A stretch of DNA of 64,000 bases from Mobula hypostoma (lineage: Eukaryota), in the NCBI RefSeq assembly GCF_963921235.1, contig NC_086097.1:16058001-16122000 (forward strand), given 5' to 3'. The notes under the pieces were generated by a model. That model saw only the letters and a list, made by a program, of their open reading frames with translations. It was not told where the DNA came from and searched no databases. This document shows positions 1 through 8,800 of the stretch, one piece after another. The position numbers and the translations under genes were made by a program. Positions within the stretch are counted from its first letter, which is position 1. Every line of letters begins with the position of its first letter.

Positions 1-1435
1 ACGGGAATGGTACCGGAGGATTGGAGGGAGGTGAATATTGTCCCCTTGTTCAAAAAAGGTAGTGGGGAAAGTCTGGGTAATTATAGACCAGTGAGCCTTA
101 TGTTTGTGGTGGGAAAGCTGTTGGAAAAGATTCTTAGAAATAGGATCTATAGGCATTTAGAGAATCATGGTCTGATCAAGGACAGTCAGCATGGCTTTGT
201 GAAGGGCGGATCGTGTCTAACAAGCCTGATAGAGTTCTTTGAGGAGGTGACCAGGCATATAGATGAGGGTAGTGCAATGGATGTGATCTATCTGGATTTT
301 AGTAAGGCATTTGACAAGGTTCTACATGGCAGGCTTATTCAGAAAGTTAGAAGGCATGGGATCCAAGGAAGTTTGGCCAGGTGGATTCAGAATTGGCTTG
401 CCTGCAGAAGGCAGCGGGTGGTGGTGGAGGGAGTACATTCAGATTGGAGGATTGTGACTAGTGGTGTCCCACAAGGATCTGTTCTGGGACCTCTACTTTT
501 CGTGATTTTTATTAACAACCTGGATGTGGGGGTAGAAGGGTGGGTTGGCAAGTTTGCAGGTGACACAAAGGTTGGTGGTGTTGTAGATAGTGTAGAGGAT
601 TGTCAAAGATTGCAGAGAGACATTGATAGGATGCAGAAGTGGGCTGAGAAGTGGCAGATGGAGTTCAATCCGGAGAAGTGTGAGGTGGTACACTTTGGAA
701 GGACAAACTCCAAGGCAGAGTACAAAGTAAATGGCAGGATACTTGGTAGTGTGGAGGAGCAGAGGGATCTCGGGGTACATGTCCACAGATCCCTGAAAGT
801 TGCCTCACAGGTAGATAGGGTAGTTAAGAAAGCTTATGGGGTGTTAGCTTTCATAAGTCGAGGGATAGAGTTTAAGAGTCATGAGGTAATGACGCAGCTC
901 TATAAAACTCTGGTTAGGCCACACTTGGAGTACTGTGTCCAGTTCTGGTCACCTCACTATAGGAAGGATGTGGAAGCATTGGAAAGAGTACAGAGGAGAT
1001 TTACCAGGATGCTGCCTGGTTTAGAAAGTATGCATTATGATCAGAGATTAAGTGAGCTAGGGCTTTACTCTTTGGAGAGAAGGAGGATGAGAGGAGACAT
1101 GATAGAGGTGTACAAGATAATAAGAGGAATAGATAGAGTGGATAGCCAGCGCCTCTTCCCCAGGGCACCACTGCTCAATACAAGAGGAGATGGCTTTAAG
1201 GTAAGGGGTGGGAAGTTCAAGGGGGATATTAGAGGAAGGTTTTTTACTCAGAGAGTGGTTGGTGCGTGGAATGCACTGCCTGAGTCAGTGGTGGAGGCAG
1301 ATACACTAGTGAAGTTTAAGAGACTACTAGACAGGTATCTGGAGGAATTTAAGGTGGGGGCTTATATGGGAGGCAGGGTTTGAGGGTCGGCACAACATTG
1401 TGGGCCAAAGGGCCTGTACTATGTTCTATGTTCTA
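1..1435 (+). mobile_element. CR1 LINE, 3' part of ORF2 (RT domain, ORF 7..1383) plus 3' tail; runs off the window's left edge
   Basis: 458-aa ORF with CR1 RT motifs ([45 protein letters not shown]). Catalytic FADD reads FAGD. Ends in a tatgttc-type repeat tail. Confidence 0.95.
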
Positions 1436-1862
1436 AGATTGGAGCGACTGGGCTTGTATTCACTGGAATTTAGAAGGATGAGAGGGGATCTGATCGAAAC
1501 ATATAAGATTATTAAGGGATTGGACACGCTAGAGGCAGGAAACATGTTCCCGATGTTGGGGGAGTCCAGAACCAGAGGCCACAGTTTAAGAATAAGAGGT
1601 AGGCCATTTAGAACGGAGTGGAGGAAAAACTTTTTCACCCAGAGAATTGTGGATCTGTGGAATGCTCTACCTCAGAAGGCAGTGGAGGCCAATTCTCTGG
1701 ATGCTTTCAAGAAAGAGTTAGATAGAGCTCTTAAAGATAGTGGAGTCAAGGGATATGGAGAGAAGGCAGGAACGAAGTACTGATTGTGGATGATCAGCCA
1801 TGATCACAGTGAATGGCAGTGCTGGCTCGAAGGGCCGAATGGCCTATTGTCTAATGTCTATT
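1436..1862 (+). mobile_element. CR1 LINE 3' fragment (different subfamily), abutting the SUDS3 retrocopy
   Basis: LGLYSLEFRRMRGDLIETYKI...NFFTQR C-terminus, 3'UTR and ctattgtctaatgtctatt tail. Confidence 0.9.
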
Positions 1863-2174
1863 AAAAAGCTCTGCATTTCATATTCTTTCCTTGTATTGTT
1901 GATCTAGTTTCTTCATTCTTTTCTGAAAAGTACTTTCCTGTAAGTGCTGTAGCTGTCTTCTGAGAGATGTCAATTTCTCCTGGTACATCTGCTCTTTTAC
2001 TTCCAGGCAGTCTGCATCATCTTGCCTATTGGCAATATCTGTCTCACTTGCATCCTCTGTAACTTCATCTAAGTCGCGGCCACGGTTACTGTGTTCGTCC
2101 TCATCGTCGACGATGTCTAGCTCCTCCTCGTCATTGTAATAGTCGACAATGGGTGAGAGGAGAGCTGTGGACAT
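1863..2174 (-). pseudogene. SUDS3: Processed (intronless) 5' fragment of SUDS3/SDS3 (SIN3A-HDAC corepressor subunit), fused in frame to a Gypsy protease
   Basis: Reads [103 protein letters not shown]. This matches the recalled vertebrate SUDS3 N-terminus ([56 protein letters not shown]). TGA replaces an Arg codon, and the copy is cut by a CR1. Confidence 0.9.
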
Positions 2175-3495
2175 CTTCCCCACCGAGCTACCTTCCTTTG
2201 CTGACACATCTAGTGCCTTGATGGTGTGCCAATCCAACTGGATTTTCCTGAGCCATTCACGTCCCAGCAACGGTGATCCTCCATTTTTCAGTATATAGAG
2301 GTTCAGCTGCTGTGTTTTATCTCCATAGGTCACTGTCACTTTAATTTTGCCTTTGGGATGCACTTTCAGTCCTGTGTAAGTCTTTAGCAGTAGTTTCATT
2401 CGTTTCAGAGGTATGTGAGAAAACAGTCGTTTGTAGTCGTGTACAGAGATCACTTTTAAAGCTGAGCCTGTGTCCAAATCCATTTTCAGTCTCATGCCTG
2501 CCACTTGTGGAATGATCTTTATTACTCTGCGATCATCTGTCTCTTTCACACTGTGAAGTTGCAGACAAGACAATTCACTTTTGTCTGAGTCGTTTTCATC
2601 AGAACTGCTTTCCCTCATTTTGTGTACATTGTTGTATTTTCCTTTCTGGGGTTTCTTGTTTCTATGTATTTTGTCCTTTTCCTGCAGTTTACTAGCTTTG
2701 CATACTCTGCCAGTGTGGCCCTGTTTGCCACAGTTTCTGCATTCTTTGTCTTTAAACCAACAGTCATCAGGGTCACGTGACATGTTCCCACAACGGTAAC
2801 ATTGTTTAATAGCTTTGCATACTCTGCCAATGTGGCCCTGTTTGCTAGTTTCTGCATTCTTTGTCTTTAAACCAACAGTCATTAGGGTCATGTGACATGT
2901 TCCCACAACAGTAACATTTCTTTCCTTCATTTCTGTTCAGTGACATTTTATTCGTACCATATTCCAGAGATTTTTGTTGTATCTCTGAAGCATCCCGTTC
3001 TGCTATTTCCGTTGATATCGCAATATTCAGTGCCTTCTCTAATGTAAGGTCTTTTTCACCCAGGAACTTCTTCTGTGTGGTTTCACAGTGCATGCCACAC
3101 AGTAATTTGTCCCTCAATGCGTCCGATAGACCAGCTCCAAATTGACGATGTTCTGACAAGTTGCACAATTCAGCGCAATATTCAGAAGGGCTTTCATTTT
3201 TGCTCTGATTCCAATTGTGAAATTTAAATCTTTCAGCAATGACAAGTGGTTTGGGGTTTAAATGCTGTTGGAGAGGGTCTACTATTTGCTTGAACGTTTT
3301 GTCAGCTGGCTTTTCAGGGTTTAACAAGCTCCGTAGCAGGATGTATGTTTTTGCTCCCATAATACTGAGTAAGACGTTGGCTTTCTTTTCATCCTTAACA
3401 CCGTTAGCCTCACAATATAACTCCACTCTTTCAATATAAGTTGCCCAATCTTCGATGCCACTATCAAATGCTGTAATGGTTCCAATCATCGCCAT
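2175..3495 (-). mobile_element. Gypsy/Ty3 LTR retrotransposon gag (four CCHC-type knuckles, one frameshift) and aspartic protease
   Basis: Gag MAMIGTITAFD..WATYIERV..PKPLVIAERFKF..ALRDKLLCG; knuckles such as [14 protein letters not shown]; protease LDTGSA...LLGREWL. ORFs 2845..3570 and 1878..2930 are joined by a 2-nt deletion near 2845. Confidence 0.92.
2694..2918 (-). repeat. Tandem duplication (~117-bp unit) of the two-zinc-knuckle module of gag
   Basis: ctttgcatactctgcca(g/a)tgtggccctgtttgc...gacatgttcccacaac(g/a)gtaacatt occurs twice in tandem. Confidence 0.9.
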
Positions 3496-3870
3496 CTTTG
3501 TTATGTTAATTAAGCCCTGTTCTCTCCTTATTTTCCTTTTTGACTCACGTGTCCTTTTTGTTAGCACCACAAGTGCACTCTGTCTAGATGTGTGTGTGTG
3601 TGTCGCTCCTTTTTATCTCCCTTCTGGGGCAGGCAGACTCTCAGTCCCCGGGAGTAAGCACTGGCTGTGGTCTCGGCTGGACGTGCTGTGGCTCCAACTG
3701 TGTCTCTTGGTTTCCCGACGTTCCTGACCCCGGCTGTGCTCCCACTTCCTTTCAGACTCGTGGCCTCGCTCTGCCTCCTTCTCCTGCTCCTTGGTTCATT
3801 CCTTGCGCTCTTCCTCCGAGTGTTGTTATCGACTAAAACCTGGAGTTCTGATAAGATGTAGGTTCATTAA

Positions 3871-3881
3871 CCTCGTCGTCA
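3871..3881 (-). promoter_or_regulatory. Putative primer-binding site of the Gypsy element
   Basis: Minus strand reads ...CAACA-aat-TGACGACGAGG, one mismatch from the TGGCGACGAGG PBS common in fish Gypsy elements, directly after a CA LTR end. Confidence 0.7.
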
Positions 3882-3884
3882 ATT

Positions 3885-4082
3885 TGTTGCGTATGTGGCC
3901 TGGTTACACAACAATGCTATTAATAAAAATGCTGGAGATGGGATCTAAGTTTCATGGTTCTATACTGGCATAATCCGAACTCAGCACATGTGTACAGATC
4001 AATACACGCCTAATAGCACATGCGATGGCATGTTACTGAAACATAAAGTAGTCCCTTATTATAATGTAGGCTACACCGTACA
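3885..4082 (-). mobile_element. Putative 5' LTR of the Gypsy element
   Basis: On the minus strand it starts TGTA and ends CAACA just upstream of the PBS. No second LTR is in the window, so the outer boundary is uncertain. Confidence 0.5.
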
Positions 4083-4089
4083 GTTGGAA

Positions 4090-4610
4090 TTTAGAATCTA
4101 TTTAAATCTTTCATCCATTCCACAATGTGAGGGAGTAAAAATCTTTGTGTAATGACTCCATTGCAATGTACAGACATGTGACTTTAAAAGTCTAATGGCT
4201 TGAAGGAAGAAGCTGTCCTGTTGGTCCTGACTTTAATGCTGCGGTAGCATTTGCCAGACAGGAACAGCTGAAATAGTTTATGGTTGGGGTGACTGGTGTC
4301 ACCAATGATCTTCCAGCCCTTCTTTCTGCACCTGCTGCTATAAATGACCTCAGTGAAGGGAAGTTCACATCTACAGATGCACTGGGCTGTCCGTACCACT
4401 CTCTGCAGTCCCCAGCGGTCAAGGTTAGTGTAGTTTCCATACTAGGTGGTGATACAGTCAGTATGTTCTCAATGGTGCACCTGTAGAAGGTCTTGAGGAT
4501 TTGGGGGCCCATGCTGAACTTCTTCAGTCGACTGAGGTGCAAGAGACACTGTTGTGCTATTTTTGCCACAAAGGCAGTGTGCACAGTCCAGCTAAGATCA
4601 TTGGTGATGT
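4090..4610 (-). mobile_element. Rex1/Babar-like LINE 3' fragment, decayed
   Basis: AQQCLLHLSRLKKF..FYRCTIENILT and HPNHKLFQLFLSGKCYRSIK motifs. Confidence 0.8.
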
Positions 4611-4614
4611 GTAT

Positions 4615-5860
4615 ACTATTGATATTCTTTGAGGAGATTACAAGTAGGGTAGATAAAGGGGATGCAGTGGATATTGTATATTTGGGCTTTCAGAAGTCCT
4701 TTGATAAGATGCCACACATGAGACTGCTTAACAAGTTAAGAGCCCAAAGTATTACAGGAAAGTTAATAGCATGGTTAGAACATTGGCTGATAGGTGCAGT
4801 GAGTAGGAACAAAAGGATTCTTTTCTGATTCGCTGCCAGCGATAAATGGTGTTCCACAGGGATCGATGTTGGGACCACTTATTTTTATGCTGTATTTCGA
4901 TAATTTAGATGATGGAATAGATGGCTTTGTTGCCAGGTTTACAGATGACACGAAGGTTGGTGGAGGGGCAGGTAGCGTTGAGGAAACAAGTAGGCGGCAG
5001 AAGGACTTAGACAGATTAGGAGAGAATGGGCAAGAATCTGGCAAATGAAATACAATGTTGGAAAATGTATGCTCATGCACTTTTTTAAGAGGAAATAAAT
5101 GTGCAGACTATTTTCTAAATGGGGAGAAAATCAAATAATCTGAGATGCAAAGGGACTTAGGAATCCTTGAGCAGAACACCCTAAACATTAGTTTGCAGGA
5201 AGAGTTGGTGGTGAGGAAGGCAAATGCAACGTTATCATTTATTTCAAAAGGTCTATAAGAGCAGGGATATGATGCTGAGGTTTTATAAGGCACTGATGAG
5301 GCCTCACCTTGAGTATTGTGAACAGTTCTCATCTCCAGATGCACTGGCATTGGAGCGGTTTCAGAGGAAGTTCACAAGGATTATTCTGGGAATGAAGGAA
5401 TTATTATAGGAGGAACATTTGATAGCTCTGGGCTTGCACTCACTGGAATTTAGAAGGATGGGGGGATTTCATTGAAACCTTTTGAATATTGAAAGGCTGA
5501 GATAGACTAGATATGCAAAGGATGTTTCCCATGGTGGGGAAGTCTAGGACAAGAGGACACAGCCTTGGGATAGAGGGATGTCCATTTAAAACAGAGGTGG
5601 AGAGAAATTTCTTCAGATGGAGAATGGTAAATTTATGGAATTTGTTACTACAGGCAGATGTGGAGGCCAGGTTGTTCGGTGTATTTAAGGCAGAGATTGA
5701 CAGGTTCTTGATTGGACACGGCATCAAAGGTTGCAGGGAGAAGGCTGGGGAGAGGGGCTGAGGGGTGGAAAAAAAGGATAAGCTGTGATTGAAGGGCAGA
5801 GCAGACTTGATGGGCCAAATACCCTAATTCTGATCCTATGTCTTATGTCTTATGGTCTTA
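4615..5860 (+). mobile_element. Decayed CR1 LINE (RT to 3' end)
   Basis: Fragmented RT ORFs (FFEEITSRVDKG, FTDDTKVGG, RPHLEYCEQF); cttatgtcttatggtctta tail. Confidence 0.9.
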
Positions 5861-5864
5861 AAGA

Positions 5865-8800
5865 TCCTACAGGTACGTTAACAGCAAAAGGATTGTCAGC
5901 GACAAAATTGGTCCTTTGGAAGACCAGAATGATAATGTATGTGTGGAGTCAAAACAGATTGGTAAGATCTCAAATGCATTCTTTGCATCTATTTACTCGG
6001 CAGATTGATACCGAGTCTATAGCAGTGAGGCAAAGCGGCATTAACTTCATGGACCCTGGACAGACTACAGAAGAGGAGGCCTTTTCTATCCTAAGGCACA
6101 TCAGGGTGGATAAATCCCCAGGGCCTTACAAGGTGTTCCCTCAGACATTACAGGAGGCAAGTGCAGAAATTGTTGGGACCCTAGAAGAGATATTTAAAGC
6201 ATCCTTAGCAACAGGAGAGGTACTGGAGGATAGCTAATATTGTTCTGCTGTTTAAAAAAGGCAAAAACTAGGAAATATTTGGCTTGTGAGTCTGACATCA
6301 GTTGTGGGAAAGTTATTGGAAGGTATTCTAATGGACCAGATCTATATGTATTTGGATAAACATGGACTGGTTAAGGATAGTCAACAAGGCTTTGTGCATG
6401 TTCTGTCATGTCTAACCAATCTTACCAAGTTTTTTGAGGAAGTTACCCGGAAAGTAGATGAAGGCAAGGTAGTGGATGTTATCTACATGGACTTCAGGAA
6501 GACATTTGACAACTTCCTGCATGGGAGGTTGGTCAAGAAGGTTTGGTCACTCGACATTCAAGATGAGGTAGCAAATTGGATGAGACATTGACTTTGTGGG
6601 AGAAACCAGAGAGTGGCAGTAGATGGTTGCCTCTCTGGGTAGAGGCCTGTGACTAGTGGTGTGCCACAGGGATTGGTGCTAGGTACTTTGTTATCTGTAT
6701 ATCAATGATCTCAATCATAACATGGTTTAGCACTTTGTGGATGACACCAAGATTGGGGTGTAGTGGACAGCAAGGAAGAATATCATGGCTTGCGAGGGAT
6801 CTAAAATCAGCTGGGAAAATGGGCTAAAAAATGTCAGATGGAATTTAATGTAGACAAGTGCAAGGTTTTACACTTCAGTAGGACCAACCAGGATAGGTCT
6901 TTCACAGTGAACAGTAGGGAATTGAGGGGTGTGGTAGAACAAAGGGATCTGGTACATAATTTGTTGAAAGTGGTGTCGCAGGTAGTTTGGGTCATAAAGA
7001 AAACTTTTGGCACATTGGCCTTCCTAAATCAAAGTATTGAGTACAGGTGATGGGTTGTTATGTTGAAGAAGTATATGATGTTGGTGGGGCCTAATTTGGA
7101 GTATTGTGTGCAGTTTTGGTCACTTACTGACAGGAAAGATGTAAACAAGGTTGAAAGGGTACAGAGAAAGTTTACAAGTACTGTACATTACTGTGGGACC
7201 CTAGTTATAAGGAAAGATTGTATGGGTTAGGACTGTATTCCTTCGACCATCAAAGGTTCAGTGGAAATTTGATAGAGGTGTATAAAATTAGGAGGGGTAC
7301 AGATCGAGTCAATGCAAGTAGGCTATTTCCACTGAGGCTGGGTGGGACTACAAGCAGAGGTCACGGGTTGTACTTTATACTTTATTGTCGCCAAACAATT
7401 GATACAAGAACGTACAATCATCACAGCAATATTTGATTCTGCACTTCCCACTCCCTGCATTACAAATAGTAAATATTAAAAATAGTAAAAATGAGTAAAT
7501 ATTAAAAATTTAAATTATAAATCATAAATAGAAAATAGAAAAATGGAAAGAAAGGTAGTGTAAAAAAAACCGAGAGGCAAGTCCGGATATTTGGAGGGTA
7601 CGGACCAGATCCGGGTCAGGATCCACTCAGCAGTCTTATCACAGTTGGAAAGAAGCTGTTCCCAAATCTGGCCGTACGAGTCTTCAACCTCCTGAGCCTT
7701 CTCCCAGAGGGAAGAGGGGCGAAAAGTGTGTTGGCTGGGTGGGTCGTGTCCTTGATTATCCTGGCAGCACTGCTCCGACAGCATGTGGTGTAAAGTGAGT
7801 CCAAGGACAGAAGATTGGTTTGTGTGATGTGCTGTGCTGTGTTCACGATCTTCTGCAGCCTCTTTCGGTCTTGGACAGGACAACTTCCATACCAGGTTGT
7901 GATGCACCCTAGAAGAATGCTTTTTATGGTGCATCTATAAAAATTAGTGAAGGTTTTAGGAGACAGGCCAAATTTCTTTAGTTTTCTCAGGAAGTAAAGG
8001 CACTGGTGGGCCTTCTTGGCAGTGGACTCTGCTTGGTTGGTCCAAGTCTGGTCATTTGTGATATTGACCCTGAGGAACTTAAAGCTTTTGACCTATTCCA
8101 CTTGCGCACCACCGATGTAAATTGGGTCGTGTGGTCCGCTACTCCTTCTGAAGTCAGCAACCAATTCCTTCATCTTGCTGACGTTGAGGGATAGGTTATT
8201 GTCTTCACACCATGCCACCAGGTTCTTAATTTCCTCTCTGTACTCAAACTCATCATTACCCGAGATACGGCCTACAATTGTTGTGTCATCAGCAAACTTA
8301 TATATTGAGTTTGATGGAAACTTGGCTACACAATCATGGGTGTACAGTGAGTACAGCAGGGGGCTGAGTACACAGCCTTGTGGGGCACCGGTGCTCAGAG
8401 TGATTGTAGAGGAGAGCTTGTCCCCTATTTTTACAGCCTGGGTCCTCTCTGTGAGGAAGTTGAAGATCCAGCTGCAGGTCTGAGTGCTAAGACCCAGGTT
8501 CCGGAGCTTAGCAATCAGCTTATTTGGAATGATGGTATTAAAGGCAGAGCTGTAGTCAATGAAAAGGAGCCTTACGTATGCGTCTTTATTCTCCAGGCGT
8601 TCTAAGGAGGAATGTAGGGCCAGAGAGATGGCATCTGCCATTGACCTGTTGCTCCGGTAGGTGAATTGCAAAGCGTCGAGGTTGACCGGTAGGCTGTGGA
8701 TGATGTGTGCCATAACCAATCTCTCAAAGCACTTCATAGCAATTGATGTCAGAGCCACAGGTCGATAGTCATTCAGGCATGCCACCTTGCTCTTCTTTGG

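Follow-up and report, generated by a model that had tools for sequence, protein, structure and literature searches.

Probable replacement of pol by a spliced SUDS3 mRNA in an amplified Ty3/Gypsy-type retrotransposon of Mobula hypostoma

We analyzed a 64,000-nt stretch of the genome of the ray Mobula hypostoma (GCF_963921235.1, NC_086097.1, positions 16,058,001-16,122,000; "the window" refers to this whole stretch), which carries on its minus strand a long terminal repeat (LTR) retrotransposon with an intron-free copy of SUDS3, the gene for the Sin3/histone deacetylase (HDAC) scaffold subunit SDS3. An earlier note on this DNA had claimed the minus-strand order LTR, primer-binding site (PBS), gag, protease (PR) and in-frame SUDS3; these features were found where the note had placed them, the PBS as a PBS-like site (Table 1), and the window proved to hold the 5' two-thirds of a complete insertion, the remainder of which lies to its left. 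We put at about 90% the probability that this insertion is a dead, non-autonomous Ty3/Gypsy-type LTR retrotransposon in which pol was replaced by spliced SUDS3 and which was later amplified.

The window copy is split by a nested non-LTR long interspersed element (LINE), labelled CR1 in the earlier note, of 4384 bp, 2522 bp of which lie left of the window, and the 3' end of the LINE abuts the cargo at 1863. Extension to the left past the LINE sequence, as the earlier note had proposed, recovered the remainder of SUDS3 together with a polypurine tract (PPT), a matching 3' LTR and a 5-bp target-site duplication (TSD). Past the LINE, the element picks up at positions 7478..7341 of locus L021, is interrupted by a 577-bp insertion, and runs on from 6764 to 5499, where we found the remaining SUDS3, a piece of its 3' untranslated region (UTR), ~220 nt of Gypsy 3' sequence, the PPT (AAAAGGGGAGGAG) and, adjoining it, the 3' LTR. 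The 577-bp insertion (L021:6765-7340) is a second nested insert interrupting the SUDS3 cargo of this copy. Without the two inserts (4384 + 577 bp) the element measures ~3.6 kb and has CCAAC at both ends. Alignment of the LTR pair over 198 sites showed 18 differences, 14 of them transitions and 4 transversions (Kimura two-parameter distance, K2P, 0.098), and the 5' LTR is homologous to those of other chimeric copies and of an autonomous relative described below. The paired 198-bp LTRs, the PPT and the CCAAC TSD show that this is a true insertion.

Direct reading of the window copy revealed the CCHC knuckles of Gag and the D-T-G motif of a retropepsin. Pfam searches of the window open reading frames (ORFs) gave only sub-threshold matches to gag and protease families and no Sds3 match at E<=0.01, and so did not by themselves identify these ORFs: DUF7083 scored 19.9 bits on gag (cut-off 27), and gag-asp_proteas scored 18.2 bits on the protease (cut-off 28.2). 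A further Pfam protease hit, of 23.1 bits, also fell short of the 28.2 cut-off. Close relatives carry PF13975. At the PBS-like site, where the window reads TGACGACGAGG, the motif TGGCGAYGAGG is found in the autonomous relative and, among 5 other chimeric copies with a locatable LTR end, in 3. The zinc-knuckle region is duplicated in tandem in the window copy specifically, and the duplication is absent from the 12 other copies examined: each of the 10 copies that span the region matches it twice over ~117 bp, and therefore has a single knuckle unit.

Behind the protease, the SUDS3 ATG (2174..2172) stands in the Gag-PR frame, and the first 107 SUDS3 codons lie in the window. This segment is identical at 288 of 312 bases (92.3%) to the genome's own spliced SUDS3 coding sequence (CDS), well above any chance resemblance, contains a 9-nt in-frame deletion, and spans 5 of the 12 parent coding exons, crossing their four joints (2063/2062, 1990/1989, 1934/1933 and 1871/1870). 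The ~100 captured codons claimed in the earlier note are thus present in the window, and their extent needs revision, since the whole CDS was captured. That note had also reported two frame breaks: the TGA in SUDS3 was confirmed, and is found at codon 102 in some other copies as well; the break in gag sits in the copy-specific tandem duplication.

Table 1. Features of the SUDS3-bearing insertion in the window (positions count from the first letter of the window; L021 is the locus holding the left part of the insertion).
Feature	Position	Strand	Basis or remark
TSD, upstream copy, CCAAC on the minus strand	4083..4087	-	same CCAAC just below L021 5499, after the 3' LTR
5' LTR, 198 bp, TG...CA	3885..4082	-	aligned with 3' LTR, L021 5696..5499
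PBS-like site TGACGACGAGG, 3 nt past the LTR	3871..3881	-	motif comparison
gag frame, ATG at 3495 to TAG at the frame break	2845..3495	-	ORF reading and weak Pfam DUF7083
CCHC knuckles	2916..2875 and 2741..2700	-	motifs seen directly
Zinc-knuckle tandem duplication, period 115, 2.0 copies, 93% matches	2687..2918	-	carries the gag frame break
Retropepsin-type protease	2247..2507	-	DTGSA 2474..2460 and LLGREWL 2270..2250, seen directly
5' crossover, 7-nt microhomology, AGGTAGC in the window copy	2187..2193	-	three-way alignment
Captured SUDS3 5' UTR, in-frame linker ..SVGK	2175..2186	-	parent homology
SUDS3 CDS 1-321, intron-free, covering exons 1-4 plus 8 nt of exon 5	1863..2174	-	parent CDS alignment
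In-frame TGA, SUDS3 codon 102, between KERI and NAELF	1878..1880	-	CpG site in the parent
Nested non-LTR LINE splitting the copy	1..1862	+	ORF 1..1383, Pfam RVT_1 E 1.8e-31

Protein comparison indicated that the SDS3 proteins of rays carry eight codons, KENLIAEL, that are missing from the retro-copies. A 55-aa SUDS3 probe that holds these codons therefore singled out one parent locus, C78:8400110-8400250, as the sole match other than a retro-copy among 150 scored matches. We mapped the parent exons by aligning SDS3 protein P0010, a named SDS3 model of a related ray, and one retro-copy to 90 kb around this locus. The parent SUDS3 occupies C78:8380296-8439661, where a CDS of 960 nt is spread across 59 kb in 12 coding exons; its introns are 10 of the GT-AG and 1 of the AT-AC class, and the copies lack all 11, with the 12 exons contiguous. 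The AT-AC intron is intron 7 (C78:8395737-8398853), with the donor ATATCCTTT, i.e. of U12 type. The product of the parent CDS equals P0010 except for an 8-residue piece in the P0010 model (GIDCVFLI, residues ~224-231), which matches intron sequence just upstream of exon 10 and is either an alternative acceptor or a modelling artefact.

The captured piece, 1324 nt in the parent, starts 22 nt upstream of the ATG, ends 342 nt past the stop and has no poly(A). Taken together, these alignments show the cargo to be a fully spliced mRNA piece carrying the whole SUDS3 CDS. By local pairwise alignment, the 12 copies that we fetched are 93.4-95.4% identical to the parent CDS; for the window copy, which falls into three pieces, the values are 92.3%, 97.8% and 94.5%. 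The domain Sds3 (PF08598) scored 39.1 bits on a family copy modelled as protein P0011 and 63.2 bits on the parent-type P0010 (cut-off 25.4). The missing eight codons correspond to a 24-nt deletion in the cargo; alternative splicing was considered as its source and ruled out, the 24 nt being internal to exon 6 and lying between two TGAGTT repeats.

A probe running from the protease into reverse transcriptase (RT) matched through its end in all 150 scored places, of 7131 candidates, which shows that abundant autonomous relatives, and hence a helper, are available. One such relative, L038/L039, has 4862 bp between its LTR ends. Across the 1805 nt that separate the LTR start from the junction it shares 86.15% identity with a chimeric copy; past the junction it reads ...SAKEGSKATSERLSQILADSEEVF... 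into RT. The 3' end of the chimera is likewise matched by this relative, in its 3' internal sequence and LTR. The 460-aa gag-PR ORF of L038 is 59% identical to fish Gypsy polyproteins. Its relatives include polyproteins of ~1311 aa, named Gypsy integrase-like by some sources, with RVT_1 (PF00078), RT_RNaseH (PF17917), RT_RNaseH_2 (PF17919), Integrase_H2C2 (PF17921) and rve (PF00665). RT, RNase H (RH) and integrase (IN) are all absent from the fetched chimeric copies, and the element is therefore non-autonomous.

At the 5' joint, three-way alignment showed GGGCAGC to be common to the autonomous element, the sampled chimeric copies and the parent 5' UTR, and the crossover therefore lies within these 7 shared bases. 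The 3' joint, where the parent 3' UTR gives way to Gypsy sequence, lies ~220 nt ahead of the 3' LTR and has a microhomology of 2-3 nt. The 5' junction falls within parent exon 1, 17-23 nt before the ATG; splicing was considered as the source of this joint and rejected, as the parent breakpoint has no acceptor. LTR-mediated retroposition of a spliced SUDS3 mRNA, which the earlier note had proposed, is borne out by the exon joints, the LTR pair, the TSD and these junctions.

This anatomy also bears on the possibility that a LINE made a processed SUDS3 pseudogene, which inserted in a Gypsy element and was later copied as part of the composite. LINEs are abundant locally and one has inserted in the window copy itself; in addition, a 2026 preprint, in the part that treats retrocopies of cartilaginous fishes, places SUDS3 among the top parents and ties retrocopy abundance to non-LTR elements (10.64898/2026.06.26.734816). 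However, the cargo was shown to lack the LINE signature, as it ends in the middle of the 3' UTR and has no poly(A), and no TSD surrounds it. Furthermore, the ~2.7 kb of RT-RH-IN are missing rather than interrupted, RT never resumes beyond SUDS3, and both joints share microhomology with the autonomous element. The earlier note had named a poly(A) tail and TSD around SUDS3 alone, with RT beyond it, as the marks of such an origin, and none of these was found; we regard a LINE origin of the cargo as highly improbable.

Based on the junctions, capture by template switching is the most likely mechanism. A virus-like particle of the autonomous element would have taken up a SUDS3 mRNA along with the element's own RNA. 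While making the minus strand, RT would first have copied the LTR and ~220 nt of 3' internal sequence, jumped to the SUDS3 3' UTR at the 2-3 nt match, copied the mRNA nearly to its 5' end, and returned to the element RNA at the 7-nt match GGGCAGC, right after the protease. The founder produced in this way would have had ~2.7 kb of RT-RNase H-integrase swapped for a 1.3-kb piece of SUDS3 mRNA, in frame behind Gag-protease. The chimera could then have been transcribed, packaged and integrated, because it retained LTRs, the putative PBS, PPT and gag, with RT and integrase provided in trans by autonomous relatives.

A read-through route, as in the origin of retroviral oncogenes, would lead to an identical end product: a Gypsy element upstream of SUDS3 would have given a chimeric transcript, by read-through or deletion, so that the 5' junction arose in DNA or RNA, and template switching would account for the 3' junction only. 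This is the classical gag-onc model (Swain and Coffin 1992, as cited in the part of PMC5131818 that discusses it), and the 2-3 nt of microhomology at the 3' joint suit the non-homologous recombination that it invokes. On the other hand, the 5' joint lies within exon 1 at a point where the parent has no splice acceptor, and the 7-nt microhomology found there favours a template switch. The region upstream of the parent was covered to C78 8450000, ~10 kb beyond the gene. We consider this route quite unlikely, and template switching at both joints remains our preferred reading.

The chimera is not confined to the window. A 438-nt query across the junction gave 636 candidates, and all 40 that were scored matched it end to end (89-100% identity, the window among them), so the chimera was amplified. 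The earlier note had also weighed an assembly chimera; since every one of these 40 matches, as well as contigs of a public run, contains the junction, it is not an artefact of this kind. Two contigs of public run X19 (records 11 and 12) bridge the junction with >31 letters on each side, and loose ends at 2187 in all four public runs covered continue into the RT of the autonomous element. Furthermore, 149 of the 150 scored matches of the 55-aa probe were retro-copies, the 150th being the parent gene, and all but one of the 149 covered 132-141 nt for 52-55 query residues, i.e. with the 8-codon gap.

Twelve copies were fetched with their flanks. Ten had the organization LTR-gag-PR-SUDS3-3' UTR piece-LTR with no RT or IN, and the other 2 were truncated at the 5' end; full copies measured 3.0-3.5 kb unless later insertions were present. 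Both junctions, where present, were common to all 12. Among 7 copies with both ends other than the window copy, private TSDs were perfect over 5 bp in 6 and matched at 4 of 5 positions in 1; one copy with a truncated 5' LTR was excluded from this count. Common junctions and private TSDs show amplification from what, judged by the breakpoints, was a single capture event. The family comprises at least ~150 copies and probably several hundred. K2P distances between the LTRs of a pair ranged from 0.057 to 0.126 in 8 copies, and at a substitution rate of 1-2.5e-9 per site per year, which is our assumption, the K2P of the window copy corresponds to an age of roughly 20-50 million years.

Two copies on different contigs (L017 and L019, contigs C63 and C36) carry a 951-bp insert in the SUDS3 cargo (L017:3765-4715 and the matching place in L019), bounded in both by the same 10-bp direct duplication, CAGCATCTCC. 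The reverse strand of the insert codes for the RNF213 RING region, matching RNF213 structures at E 1.2e-20. As the insert is common to two copies on different contigs, the composite must have been retrotransposed after gaining it. A retained intron was considered for this ~950-bp insert and rejected on account of the 10-bp flanking duplication and the RNF213 coding sequence on the reverse strand.

The earlier note had raised selection on the cargo, and a comparison of synonymous and nonsynonymous changes among the copies gave no sign of it. The 255 singleton changes comprised 68 synonymous, 179 nonsynonymous and 8 stop changes (26.7/70.2/3.1%), against a neutral expectation of 26.2/69.4/4.4% at the observed transition bias. 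Changes found in at least 2 copies but in less than 60% of them were likewise neutral-like (12 synonymous, 35 nonsynonymous, 5 stop). Frameshifts were private to single copies except for one common to 2 copies. These patterns show, as far as substitution classes can tell, that the copies decayed neutrally. No stop or frameshift was shared by at least 60% of copies, and the only family-wide indel was the in-frame 24-nt deletion; the founder thus probably had an open fusion frame of ~710 aa. Relative to the parent, 14 changes were found in at least 60% of copies, 11 of them synonymous and 3 nonsynonymous. The pooled ratio of nonsynonymous to synonymous differences per site (pN/pS) was 0.354 between copy and parent (15 rows) and 0.619 between copies (66 pairs, 12 copies).

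The apparently open frame of the founder cargo, the in-frame fusion and the 11 of 14 synonymous family-wide differences speak for a Gag-PR-SUDS3 fusion that had a function and was under selection, whether for the element or the host. However, copy-specific and few-copy changes fit neutrality, and among the 149 scored copies no open frame approaches ~710 aa, the longest around the probe being 573 aa. In addition, an in-frame join has a one-in-three chance, and a synonymous excess can arise on the parent lineage. We therefore hold a selected fusion to be improbable, and slightly more so the specific proposal that the founder expressed an intact ~710-aa Gag-protease-SDS3 polyprotein whose SDS3 part aided the unusual success of the element. 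Such an SDS3 moiety might titrate or recruit the host Sin3-HDAC complex at virus-like particles or integration sites; if this were true, a retrotransposon would have acquired for its own use a subunit of the very machinery by which it is silenced. All tests that drew on the copies are consistent with a neutrally evolving passenger, which is most likely what the SUDS3 cargo is.

Several points weigh against the reading of an amplified, template-switched passenger. The mechanism is read from junction anatomy, with no direct observation of switching, and a microhomology of only 2-3 nt at the 3' joint is often given by chance. Only one autonomous copy was sequenced per junction site, and its 86% identity to the family does not fix exactly what the true donor carried where the crossover took place. 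The PBS assignment is tentative and supposes that the PBS-like site is complementary to the 3' end of a tRNA-Ser, and the copy number is a lower bound (at least 149 scored retro-copies) rather than a census. Finally, the pN/pS of 0.354 and the 11 of 14 synonymous changes may stem from a period before the burst when the cargo was constrained, and they could equally be explained by change in the conserved parent since the capture.

Several protein models annotated as SDS3 paralogues belong to this family. P0011-P0014, P0016, P0020 and P0121 are 'SDS3-like' models with the 8-codon deletion from two Mobula species, and some 'SDS3-like' Mobula models include residues of the protease or linker, or out-of-frame translations of the linker. 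By their sequence features, the Mobula 'SDS3-like' models with the 8-codon deletion are copies of the retrotransposon, not paralogues, and several annotated paralogues need to be read in this way. Among two best-120 protein lists, models with the family signature came only from the two Mobula species, and Hemitrygon, Pristis and Callorhinchus had parent-type SDS3 only. As evidence on the distribution of the family these lists are weak, because annotation pipelines drop most pseudogenes.

The family resembles other systems in which a defective element is mobilized by a complete one. Acutely transforming retroviruses are replication-defective, with spliced host cDNA replacing pol in an in-frame Gag fusion and a helper supplying RT and IN. 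The Mobula family differs from them in that it is endogenous, resides in the germline, belongs to Ty3/Gypsy, lacks env and has a corepressor subunit as its cargo, and the present sequence data gave no evidence of a cellular effect. Gag-only non-autonomous LTR elements, such as barley BARE2, keep LTRs, PBS, PPT and gag and are mobilized by an autonomous partner; unlike the SUDS3-bearing family, they have no host gene as cargo and owe their origin to deletions or mutations.

Among animals, LTR-mediated retrocopies offer a close parallel (Tan et al. 2016, Genome Res 26:1663, PMC5131818). As described in the parts of that paper on their structure, these are also intron-free host mRNAs inside an LTR element, with microsimilarity at the fusions and no poly(A), and the chimera is a non-autonomous element capable of secondary retroposition. 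The SUDS3 element likewise lacks the 11 introns, has element sequence with microhomology on both sides and underwent secondary retroposition, in agreement with the double-template-switch model that the paper outlines for LTR-mediated retroposition. The SUDS3-carrying element is, then, an LTR-mediated retrocopy that behaves as a non-autonomous retrotransposon: the process is known and the copy number unusual. The retrocopies reported in the same parts of PMC5131818 are mostly partial, with a median of 26% of the transcript, and occur at one or few sites, whereas the Mobula family holds the whole CDS, in frame with Gag-PR, in at least 149 scored copies. With at least ~150 copies it is an extreme case. 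Maize Bs1, as that paper presents it, is likewise an LTR element with host exon sequence in place of its enzymes; it has 1-5 copies and pieces of three genes, in contrast to the hundreds of copies, the one complete CDS and the subfamily with an RNF213 piece seen here.

In our search of the literature on SUDS3, LTR gene capture and Mobula retrotransposons, we found no description of a Gypsy-borne SUDS3 family. The family provides a clean vertebrate example of LTR-mediated capture, in which a complete host CDS lies in frame, both breakpoints are placed at base level, and parent and helper are identified. At least in this genome, the SUDS3 retrocopies found travel with one Gypsy-derived family and are not repeated products of LINEs, which may explain the ranking of SUDS3 in the 2026 preprint.

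The surroundings of the window copy are also rich in LINE sequence. On the plus strand, the ORFs at 1331-1783 and 1-1383 overlap and have alike C-terminal motifs, which suggests two stacked LINE 3' ends instead of one insertion. In the upstream flank (4100-7000), we observed RT-bearing LINE fragments on both strands, with RT motifs of the YLDFSKAFD type; the window copy therefore sits in a repeat-dense stretch.

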